This document shows, in pieces, positions 4,408-6,113 of a stretch of DNA of 64,000 nt. How positions within the stretch are numbered: position 1 is the stretch's first letter; every line of letters begins with the position of its first letter. The notes below the pieces were generated by a model. It was not told where the DNA came from. It was given only the letters and a program-made list of their open reading frames with translations, and did no database searches. Origin of the DNA: Candidatus Onthovivens sp. (GTDB taxonomy: Bacteria; Bacillota_I; Bacilli_A; RFN20; CAG-826); NCBI GenBank assembly GCA_034104285.1, contig JAXEEC010000056.1:84439-148438 (forward strand), read 5' to 3'. Both the position numbers and the translations under genes were made by a program.

Positions 4408-5034
4408 TTACTTATTCAGAGCCTTTATATCATGAACTATAAGGTCAATAATTGCGGCCTGCTCAGCAGTACAATCGCCAACCTTCTTACCCTTACCCAG
4501 ATGCTTATCAACAATCTGAGTAATCTTTATGGCATTGCCCTGATCTTTCTGCATCAAAATACCAACTAAATCTTGGAACTCTTTCATAAGAGCTTCAAAA
4601 TCATAAGTCTCTTCCTGACTTACTACCTGAGTCTTTTCATCAGTAACAAGAGTGCCATTTGAAGCTGCAGCTTCCTTGTCTATAGCTTCCGCAATTGCAT
4701 TTACCAAGTTATCATAAGAAAACTCAATAAAATCAGGAGTAAAGCGGAAGCGACTACCCGCAACAAAGCGAGGAGTACCACGCATAAATAGAATGGTCTT
4801 ATTACCATCATCAGTATCAATAGCACGAGAATAGCCTATTATATCACAAGTTCTCTCACAAACAAGACGAGCGCGCTTGTCAAGAGTAGGCACTATCTTT
4901 GATACCTCTTGGCCCTTTTCATTGGTAAAAGTTTTTTCAGTTGAATGGCTGATAAGAACAAGGCCATAATTCAACTGAAGAATTTTGCGGATGCATGTGT
5001 CAAATTCATCCTGCGCCATTGTATAACCTTTCAA
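4408..5034 (-). CDS. AAA_24 (Sak4-like) RecA-fold ATPase, exon 2
   Basis: ...GLVLISHSTEK... is the core C-terminal region of AAA_24 proteins. Begins GYTMAQ, continuing ...IPYGK from exon 1. Joined in frame once the 5032-6113 intron is removed. Confidence 0.6.
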   Translation of the reverse strand: MKGYTMAQDEFDTCIRKILQLNYGLVLISHSTEKTFTNEKGQEVSKIVPTLDKRARLVCERTCDIIGYSRAIDTDDGNKTILFMRGTPRFVAGSRFRFTPDFIEFSYDNLVNAIAEAIDKEAAASNGTLVTDEKTQVVSQEETYDFEALMKEFQDLVGILMQKDQGNAIKITQIVDKHLGKGKKVGDCTAEQAAIIDLIVHDIKALNK

Positions 5035-6113
5035 TTTTGTTATCCTAAAAGCTTTTTATCTTTTAGTTCTTATACTTTTTATTCGTATAAGTTCAGCATA
5101 TCTTTTCATCTTAATGCATAAGATGTCGTAGTCTCGTGGAAAACTATATCATTTAAGGAGTTCTTCAAATTTTTCTTTTTTTCGTTTTAGATAAAGCGTT
5201 GACTGTGTATTATAAAGTAAATTATAAATTTTTTGAATTTTTTGTTTAGTATAGCCATATACTCTATATATAGTTACATTTTTTTTAGACAAAAAAGAAA
5301 TTTGTAATTCAATATCATATTTTGTAAAAAATTCAACAATTTTTTTTGCAATATCATAAGAACCTGTATCAACTTGCCAAGTAATTGAAGTCCCTTGTTT
5401 AATACTTCCATCTCCATCAAATAATCCTCTAATATAGTCTTTAATATATTGAAACTTTAATTTTTCTGGAAAACGATACTCTGGATTATAAGTTTTATTA
5501 GGTATTATATGATATTGAGCTAAATCATTTTTTATTTCTTTAGAATAAAAATATAATTTACTGTTTTCATAACCTCGAGCGGTTTCATAATCTTTAACGG
5601 GGCGCTGATTCTCTATAATTGCATTTAATTTTTCTAAAAGTTCTTTATCTTGTCGTTGCAATTCTATATAAATTTGATTTTCCATAGAACTAATACAACC
5701 GTCAGAACCTAAAATTCCTAACCAATAAGCCATATCTTCATTTTGTACTTTAAAAAAGTCATGATTAATATAATATTTATTGGCATTAGTTTCTTGAAGA
5801 GTTTTAATAGGAATATTGTATTTATTTAAAACTTTTTTAACAATATGATCACTTACCGGAATAAAAGCTCCCGCTTTTTTTTGGCCCTGTTTTAAAACAG
5901 TATAATTATAAATTATCTGTTGTTCCTGCTCTAATGTTAATTTTATTGATTTCCCCATGCCGAGGCAATCCTCCTCTAATGTTTAATTTTTCTATGCGTT
6001 GTGCGTGGTAAGGCTTTTAAACCTGACCTTCCGCTCTGATTCCCATTTCAGGGTTCCAGTTTTTTACTACGATTTTCTAATTAATGTTACCATTAATAAG
6101 CGGCAAAGATTTT
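5032..6113 (-). mobile_element. group I-type intron with LAGLIDADG HEG, interrupting the AAA_24 ATPase gene
   Basis: Exon 1 ends ...CCTTACGGT (last nt U). The intron ends ...AAAATTG (last nt G). The flanks splice in frame: (0-1-1082) mod 3 = 0. Non-coding structured ~150 nt and ~115 nt segments flank the HEG ORF. Confidence 0.55.
5149..5958 (-). CDS. LAGLIDADG homing endonuclease (double-motif), intron-encoded
   Basis: Two LAGLIDADG motifs: MAYWLGILGSDGCI and IRGLFDGDGSI. Own start and TGA stop. Not in frame with the host exons, so it is not an intein. Confidence 0.8.
   Translation of the reverse strand: MGKSIKLTLEQEQQIIYNYTVLKQGQKKAGAFIPVSDHIVKKVLNKYNIPIKTLQETNANKYYINHDFFKVQNEDMAYWLGILGSDGCISSMENQIYIELQRQDKELLEKLNAIIENQRPVKDYETARGYENSKLYFYSKEIKNDLAQYHIIPNKTYNPEYRFPEKLKFQYIKDYIRGLFDGDGSIKQGTSITWQVDTGSYDIAKKIVEFFTKYDIELQISFLSKKNVTIYRVYGYTKQKIQKIYNLLYNTQSTLYLKRKKEKFEELLK

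Follow-up and report, generated by a model that had tools for sequence, protein, structure and literature searches.

A probable mobile group I intron with a LAGLIDADG endonuclease gene in a Sak4-like gene of a large gut phage

The interrupted gene and its boundaries

The 64,000 nucleotides (nt) of DNA considered here, 'the window' in what follows, come from an assembly assigned to Candidatus Onthovivens sp. (GCA_034104285.1, contig JAXEEC010000056.1, positions 84,439 to 148,438), and in them a Sak4-like gene of the AAA_24 family, on the minus strand, is split by exactly 1082 nt, at 6113..5032, within which lies a gene for a homing endonuclease. A preliminary description, made from the letters alone, had taken the insert to be an intron. 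The phage to which the locus belongs is a large gut phage, of about 175 kb, with an SPbeta-like replication module, and no match to the locus was found by megablast among 50,697 phage records. The main features of the locus, with the open reading frame (ORF) list as one of their sources, are these:

6476..6114, minus strand: exon 1, M1 to G121, with the Walker A motif GEPKSGKT and U6114 as its last base (ORF list, Pfam, end of the blastn match)
6113..5032, minus strand: predicted group I intron of 1082 nt, from the first base after the U at -1 to the terminal omega-G, 5032
5970..5976, minus strand: Shine-Dalgarno-like GAGGAGG, 11 nt upstream of the endonuclease ATG, of putative function
5958..5149, minus strand: homing endonuclease gene, 269 amino acids (aa), ATG to TGA (ORF list)
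5031..4408, minus strand: exon 2, K122 to K328 and the TAA stop (Pfam, start of the blastn match to intron-less alleles)

Exon 1 ends ...ADIPYG, with GGT (6116..6114) as its last codon, and exon 2 begins KGYTMAQDEF, with AAA (5031..5029) as its first. Read without splicing, the exon-1 frame continues as KIFAAY to a TAA at 6095..6093, an ORF (6476..6093) of 127 aa, and a downstream ORF, 5034..4408, carries the C-terminal AAA_24 half. Separately the two exons match Pfam AAA_24 over profile positions 2-94 with 82.1 bits and 100-195 with 47.3 bits, but once joined they encode a 328-aa product with a single match over 2-195 of 195 at 141.1 bits (PF13479 cutoff 27), so that the improvement anticipated for a spliced frame was indeed found. 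Against PHROG 124, 'Sak4-like ssDNA annealing protein', the spliced product scores 171 bits, and the GEPKSGKT motif is invariant among homologues; the name Sak4-like is an annotation by homology, and an activity in annealing or recombination is a prediction.

Is the insertion real? Among 5.8 billion proteins searched there are uninterrupted homologues of 328 aa with 96-99% identity, in which G121, K122 and G123, the residues flanking the junction, are invariant, and there the spliced product matches the intron-less homologues residue for residue. Intron-less alleles are present in four contigs of 101-176 kb (L001-L004, from assemblies that include pig-gut metagenomes) with 99% protein identity, nothing inserted at the site and the common gene order YorF, AAA_24, YorH, DnaB, primase. 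As relatives so close have the uninterrupted gene, the insertion is far beyond chance. In blastn against these four the window is longer by exactly 1082 bases, which fall between subject positions 6363 and 6364, the same separation as had been described. An AAA repeat of 3 nt causes a small ambiguity in placing the boundary; since 6113..5032 is the sole placement with U at -1 and G as the final intron base, the originally proposed coordinates, with a U before the intron, a G at its end and flanks in frame, are exact.

Around the insertion site the intron-less allele of the L001 type reads GATATACCTTACGGT followed by AAAGGTTATAC. The predicted ligated junction of the window gene is ...CCTTACGGT joined to AAAGGTTATAC, and reads spanning it would have GATATACCTTACGGT directly followed by AAAGGTTATACAATGG. 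Two of the intron-less alleles, L002 and L003 (6361-6366), have TTATGGT-AAGGGT, where the hyphen marks the insertion point, versus TTACGGT-AAAGGT elsewhere, with both changes, at -3 and +3, synonymous; these variants might be endonuclease-resistant targets.

The RNA core

Exact 21- and 22-mers from both non-coding flanks found a family of relatives in about 80 IMG/VR contigs, from which 36 distinct elements were extracted. (A search of viral contigs with the 14-mer CCACGAGACTACGA gave 86 hits, nearly all by chance, the real ones being L010 and L036 only.) With the ORF excised, 32 family members were aligned (alignment A2) over 57 base pairs in nine helices. Paired cells make up 92.2% of that alignment versus 72.7% in column shuffles and 33-43% when partners are slid by 1-3 columns, and compensatory changes occur at 46 of the 57 pairs and in every helix, the pseudoknotted P7 included; not one of 500 shuffles reached any of the observed covariation measures. 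Folding with RNAfold, the ORF being replaced by a tetraloop, gave -59 kcal/mol (z=-5.2; 0/200 shuffles fold as well) and recovered every helix (P1-P6a, the ORF stem, P8, P9, P9.1) except P7, pseudoknots being beyond what RNAfold can represent. Further, a covariance model of the 3' half of the family, R1, built without the window and its near-twin L010, matches the window at 5139..5032 with 118 bits (E=6e-22); the match covers the whole model, and its end falls on the proposed terminal G. The elements, all on the minus strand, are:

6101..6117: P1, exon CGGU and intron AAA paired with the guide UUUGCCG (6107..6101), with U6114·G6101 at the splice site
6108..6105: CUUU, a possible P10 partner of exon-2 AAAG, read from sequence
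6077..6100: P2 hairpin, CUUAUUAAU-GGUAAC-AUUAAUUAG (fold)
6066..6072: P3 5' strand UCGUAGU, paired with 5132..5126, double changes at 7/7 pairs
6065..6060: J3/4, A-rich AAAAAA, directly after the P3 5' strand
6036..6059: P4 (CUGG/UCAG) and P5 (CCC-UGAAAU-GGG), with AA joiners on both sides, 97% paired, three pairs double-changed
6003..6034: P6 (GCG/CGC) and P6a hairpin, 10/11 pairs double-changed
5993..5999: P7 5' strand, A, a bulged C and GCAUA, paired with 5100..5095
5988..5992: 5' strand GAAAA of the ORF-bearing hairpin, in a P7.1-type position between P7 and P3' (the P3 3' strand), paired with 5143..5139, 5/5 pairs double-changed
5139..5143: 3' strand UUUUC of that hairpin, then the conserved joiner CACGAG (5138..5133)
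5126..5132: P3 3' strand ACUACGA (covariation)
5107..5125: P8 hairpin CAUCUUA/UAAGAUG (covariation, R1, fold)
5095..5106: J8/7 AAAAGA and P7 3' strand UAUGCU, block AAAAGAUAUGCUGAAC, invariant in the family
5045..5091: P9 (CUUAUAC/GUAUAAG) and P9.1 (CUAAAAG/CUUUUAG), 100% paired, 11/14 pairs double-changed
5032..5044: 3' tail GAUAACAAAAUUG ending in omega-G, with GAUAACA invariant in the family; the R1 match ends at 5032

The pairing CGGUAA/UUGCCG of P1 is part of the centroid fold, and at other insertion sites the guide sequence covaries with the exon, with U·G each time (GGCAU/GUGCC, GGAU/GUCC, GCCU/GGGC, GGGGU/GCCCC). Altered bases but retained helices are well illustrated by L036, where P2 is UUAAUAU/AUAUUAA and P8 is AUCCUUG/CAAGGAU; the stem of the ORF hairpin, which sits between the conserved blocks CAACGCAUA and CACGAG, is GAUAU/AUAUC there and GGAAG/CUUCC in L129. 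P7 is nearly invariant and 100% paired in the family, with three compensatory changes, GCAUA/UAUGC becoming GAUUA/UAAUC in L112a and the A-U beyond the bulge becoming G-C in L094. The G-C pair beside the bulge would be the presumed guanosine-binding site. In domain 9, P9 and P9.1 are present and covary, and no P9.0 or P9.2 was identified.

Two other assignments were tried and rejected. P7 as CGGCAU, overlapping the endonuclease ATG, with AUGCUG fails as its pairs are not kept in L036, and the pairing that replaced it, GCAUA/UAUGC with the A-U after the bulged C, covaries. GACUA within CCACGAGACUACGA was considered as P7 or a classical R element, but the segment covaries with the strand upstream of P4 and so is P3'.

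The endonuclease and its gene

The encoded protein has two LAGLIDADG motifs, LGILGSDGC and RGLFDGDGS, and in each the acidic residue is present. It matches Pfam LAGLIDADG_3 in two stretches (E=1e-9, 39 bits, cutoff 22.5) and PHROG 4645, endonuclease, with 139 bits; a PDB sequence search with it gave nothing significant. Its closest annotated homologues are intron-encoded endonucleases of Staphylococcus phages, with 31-32% identity over 91% of the length. Non-coding RNA borders the gene, 155 nt of it upstream and 117 nt downstream. A gene with its own start and TGA and structured RNA on both sides, as well as homology of its N-domain to a partial endonuclease at the left end of the window, had been pointed out in the preliminary description, and all of this holds, the homology being 50% identity over 42 aa (E=3e-11). 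Translation of the endonuclease, and where it would cleave, are predictions.

In relatives that include L036 (4360-4400), L144 and L157 the endonuclease ORF extends through CACGAG and P3' into P8, terminating as ...YPRDYESLIKD or ...IPRDSNSSIEE. The window (5148-5100, minus strand) has a TGA that ends the endonuclease 17 nt earlier, and beyond that stop the frame still reads YSFPRDYD. The overlap of ORF and intron core seems ancestral.

Signs of mobility and selection

The same intron occupies this site in a viral contig of 176 kb, L010. Going through the locus, the identities of the window to it are:

Exon 1: 83.7%
Intron, 5' non-coding part: 98.7%
Endonuclease gene: 97.9%
Intron, 3' non-coding part: 100%
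Exon 2: 93.3%

The intron is thus more conserved than the exons, from which it follows that it is younger than its surroundings. Exon 2 has 42 nucleotide differences between the two and not one amino acid difference, so the interrupted gene is under purifying selection. Presence in some alleles and absence from others, together with an intron more conserved than its flanks, are signs of homing. Moreover, markers at +33, +39 and +42 are common to both intron-bearing alleles and absent from all four intron-less ones, and this sharing looks like a co-conversion tract.

A family of introns in Sak4-like genes

How far has this intron type spread? In thirteen of the 36 elements only 22-53 nt separate the 5' strand of P7 from the conserved CCACGAG; these are ORF-less with a contiguous core. 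The others have 650-1050 nt at the same point, always encoding a double-motif LAGLIDADG protein, and both motifs are kept in all 23 ORF-bearing relatives. When the spliced protein was compared with the family loci by tblastn, 23 members proved to interrupt Sak4-like genes, at about five sites, and the remaining members are in other genes. In the numbering of the window protein the Sak4 sites are:

26/27: Walker A
64/65
92/93: after the DT motif
121/122: the site in the window, which also holds the ORF-less L138
About 175

Some single Sak4-like genes (L112 and L141, with L115 listed alongside them) have two introns of the family, each with its own LAGLIDADG gene. The related intron of L036 (3180-4480), with a core about 82% identical, is in a Sak4-like gene at residue 92/93 with its guide retargeted (GGCAU/GUGCC). 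Within the lineage of the window phage itself, proteins shortened to 304 aa (P0010) are explained by an intron at 25/26, between E25 and P26 rather than G121 and K122, which is with a LAGLIDADG gene in L166 (1800-3003) and without one in L167 (2680-3003); these two are close relatives, with 99% protein identity, and R1 scores their intron at 63-70 bits. By protein alignment their last exon base is G (GAG), forming a G-C pair with the guide CUCUCC instead of U·G.

Among 185,579 species-representative genomes the sole exact match to the 22-mer of the 5' core is in L168 (3078-3266, minus strand; R1 96 bits), a 33.8-kb contig of an Oscillospiraceae metagenome-assembled genome from rabbit, which is a weak hint at host range, and the contig may be a binned phage. 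In a full-text search of the literature that combined Sak4 with intron, no account of an intron interrupting a member of the Sak4 gene family came up. That all this amounts to an uncatalogued group IA lineage is a proposal that we regard as about as likely as not: such a lineage would not be visible to the Rfam group I model RF00028, would have its LAGLIDADG gene always in the single hairpin between P7 and P3', and would have radiated over at least five conserved sites of Sak4-like genes, sometimes two per gene, in gut phages that in some cases use TAG as a sense codon.

What the element is

A U·G pair in P1, a terminal omega-G, a covarying P3-P9 core with a P3/P7 pseudoknot and a restored reading frame, each of them a mark of group I introns, are all present. 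With high confidence, then, though short of certainty, the element is a mobile group I intron, of group IA and Twort-like, in a yorG-like (Sak4-like, AAA_24) phage gene. On folding of the pre-mRNA, exon CGGU and intron AAA would pair with UUUGCCG to form P1 with U·G at the cleavage site, and the P3-P9 core with its P3/P7 pseudoknot would form. Free guanosine, held in P7, would attack after U6114, and P10 (exon-2 AAAG with intron CUUU) and the terminal G5032 would position the 3' splice site. Ligation of GGU to AAA would restore the invariant G121-K122-G123 and the 328-aa ATPase. The hairpin between P7 and P3' would carry the independently translated double-motif endonuclease, which in a co-infection would cut intron-less alleles, repair then copying the intron and a short flanking stretch of exon. 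Catalysis itself and the guanosine site are predictions.

Several points weigh against this. The Rfam model RF00028, Intron_gpI, has no match in the whole window at gathering score, or in the region even at E<=10, and it likewise misses the ORF-less relative L129 and L166/L167, even at E<=10. BLAST of the intron core against the record of phage Twort gives no significant nucleotide similarity. Between P7 and P3' this intron has a single hairpin, as against two in subgroup IA2, and its P5 is just 3 base pairs. The intron of L166/L167 apparently has G and not U at -1, so that the canonical rule is not obvious in every member, and both splicing and endonuclease activity are predicted from sequence. 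What weight should the Rfam result be given? As a positive control, the same Rfam model scores three Twort orf142 introns at 64-101 bits (I2 and I3 at 97-101), and since the control works the miss is a limit of the detector and not a failed structural criterion. R1, for its part, aligns end to end with Twort orf142 I2 and I3, stopping at the terminal G of each, with 26 and 24 bits (E=6.5e-4 and 1.6e-3), a weak but specific link to these proven group I introns. Of the two outcomes that the preliminary description had named as refuting it, neither occurred: the spliced frame improves the AAA_24 match, and a group I core is present, with P1, P2-P9.1, the P3/P7 pseudoknot, covariation among 32 members, the fold z of -5.2, R1 and the Twort link. 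The standard Rfam scan fails to detect this core, so the check it had proposed, the same as for other introns it had suggested in the window, is not one that such a scan can settle, and as R1 on the rest of the window gives a next best E of 0.13 or worse, there is no second member of this intron family. The intron is best termed IA-like, a Twort-like group IA intron of the self-splicing type; strict membership of IA2 does not apply because there is one hairpin in domain 7, not two (in ORF-less relatives, a single stem with a 14-nt loop).

Could the intron have lost the ability to splice, with this copy of the Sak4-like gene a pseudogene? That splicing is predicted, that the core is unrecognised by the Rfam model and that a phage could perhaps tolerate loss of the gene would all be in keeping with such decay, but every core helix is intact, so is the endonuclease ORF, which keeps the catalytic Asp of both motifs, and, with an L010 intron 98-100% identical and exons that have diverged almost only synonymously, there is selection on the interrupted gene; we regard a dead intron as very improbable. 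Slightly more improbable still is a gene that is never spliced, split by an endonuclease cassette with the half-polypeptides assembling, as in T-even phage genes split by free-standing homing endonucleases. Exon 2 could start at TTG 5034..5032, with AGGA 8 nt upstream, and the frame of exon 1 meets a stop codon soon after entering the insert, within a few codons. However, the 272 nt flanking the endonuclease are a conserved RNA with covariation and a pseudoknot, which begins and ends precisely where the insertion does, its boundaries follow the rule of U before the intron and G at its end, with a guide that covaries with the exon, and ORF-less copies of the RNA (22-53 nt replacing the ORF) interrupt genes by themselves, for which a cassette has no explanation. 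An intein, or another in-frame insertion at the protein level, can be dismissed, as had been concluded before: LAGLIDADG domains do occur inside inteins too, but the reading frame of exon 1 terminates within the insert, at TAA 6095..6093. The endonuclease is a separate ORF between stretches of non-coding RNA, with a Shine-Dalgarno sequence, an ATG and a TGA of its own, and Pfam finds no Hint or intein splicing domain.

Comparison with known systems

For the mobile group I intron the closest comparison is with the Twort orf142 introns I2 and I3 (Staphylococcus phage, IA2, AF132670), which are also in phage mRNA and have the same order of elements. Motifs common to Twort and the window are CAACG before P7, GAUAU-P7'-CUGAAC, P9 with P9.1, and the tail UAACAnAAUUG at the 3' boundary. 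Where the ORF hairpin of the window lies, between P7 and P3', the Twort I2 sequence has hairpins P7.1-GUA-P7.2 (read from L165). Unlike the window intron, then, Twort has two hairpins, as well as a longer P5, no ORF in its orf142 introns, and detection by Rfam. Two domain-7 hairpins, P7.1 and P7.2, characterise subgroup IA2 of T4 and Twort (PMC3428280, PMC4227781), and a crystal structure of the Twort ribozyme exists (cited in PMC3984707).

In phages Romulus and Remus (JX846613, Romulus_081) a homologue of the LAGLIDADG endonuclease is likewise inside an interrupted recombination gene of the RecA superfamily, in a Firmicutes phage, though the host gene there is RecA-like and not AAA_24/Sak4. 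The RNA flanking it has no match with R1 or Rfam, and a common intron lineage is not demonstrable. ORFs of T4 introns are positioned in P6a and P9.1. In the nrdF intron of the Bacillus cereus group the ORF begins in P6a (PMC2248736). Like the introns of T4 td, nrdB and nrdD (sunY) and of nrdE and nrdF in the B. cereus group, that of the window is group IA and in a DNA-metabolism gene of phage or prophage, with an endonuclease in a peripheral loop, a site at a conserved motif and presence/absence polymorphism (PMC3984707, PMC2248736), but those endonucleases are GIY-YIG, HNH or similar and that of the window is LAGLIDADG. As to the host gene, the match to the Sak4/YorG family (PF13479, PHROG 124) is strong and the order YorF, YorG, YorH, DnaB, primase is of SPbeta type, yet the known members found, SPbeta yorG and Enterococcus phage homologues, are uninterrupted, unlike the window gene.

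Probable amber recoding and a further structured-looking RNA

In-frame TAGs are present elsewhere in the window (1-800 and 8674-9651, minus strand), in otherwise continuous genes, namely a DHH/RecJ-like gene, the LAGLIDADG gene at the left edge and a GIY-YIG gene of 326 codons with four of them. L001 has the same GIY-YIG gene, called through three TAGs, and one TAG of the window aligns with CAG (Gln). ARAGORN reports a tRNA with anticodon CTA at 41443-41517, minus strand, which is not among the Rfam gathering-level tRNA hits. Very probably the phage reads amber as glutamine by means of its own suppressor tRNA. The Sak4-like gene and the intron endonuclease have no TAG. L036 has in-frame TAGs in its Sak4-like host gene as well as in its endonuclease gene, and that phage too seems amber-recoded.

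Upstream of the partial LAGLIDADG gene, between the primase and DHH genes at about 300-800 (minus strand), is a structured-looking non-coding RNA, with for example aaactgcgggaacgccc and gttcaacgaccataataaggacta. In appearance it resembles a group I intron from a lineage other than this one, and it has no match with Rfam or R1.

Implications

As annotated, this gene is in pieces: gene callers give fragments of 127 aa and 208 aa with an 'endonuclease', and relatives are entered as N-terminally truncated proteins of 304 aa and 292 aa. Recognising the intron restores a complete recombination ATPase. Since the Rfam model misses the lineage in about 80 viral contigs, counts of introns in phage metagenomes that rely on Rfam only are underestimates, and the alignment and model from this analysis could close that gap. 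One lineage of intron and endonuclease at several motifs of a single gene family (Walker A, the DT on the Walker-B side, YGKGY) is also a clear example of target diversification. How group I introns work is understood no differently as a result, the element being of a well-known kind; what is distinctive, and modestly interesting, is a lineage that escapes Rfam, an endonuclease in a domain-7 hairpin and many sites within one gene family. If the lineage is truly an uncatalogued one, Sak4-like genes would hold a large, as yet unreported store of group I introns, and intron counts made for phage metagenomes with standard scans would be systematically too low.

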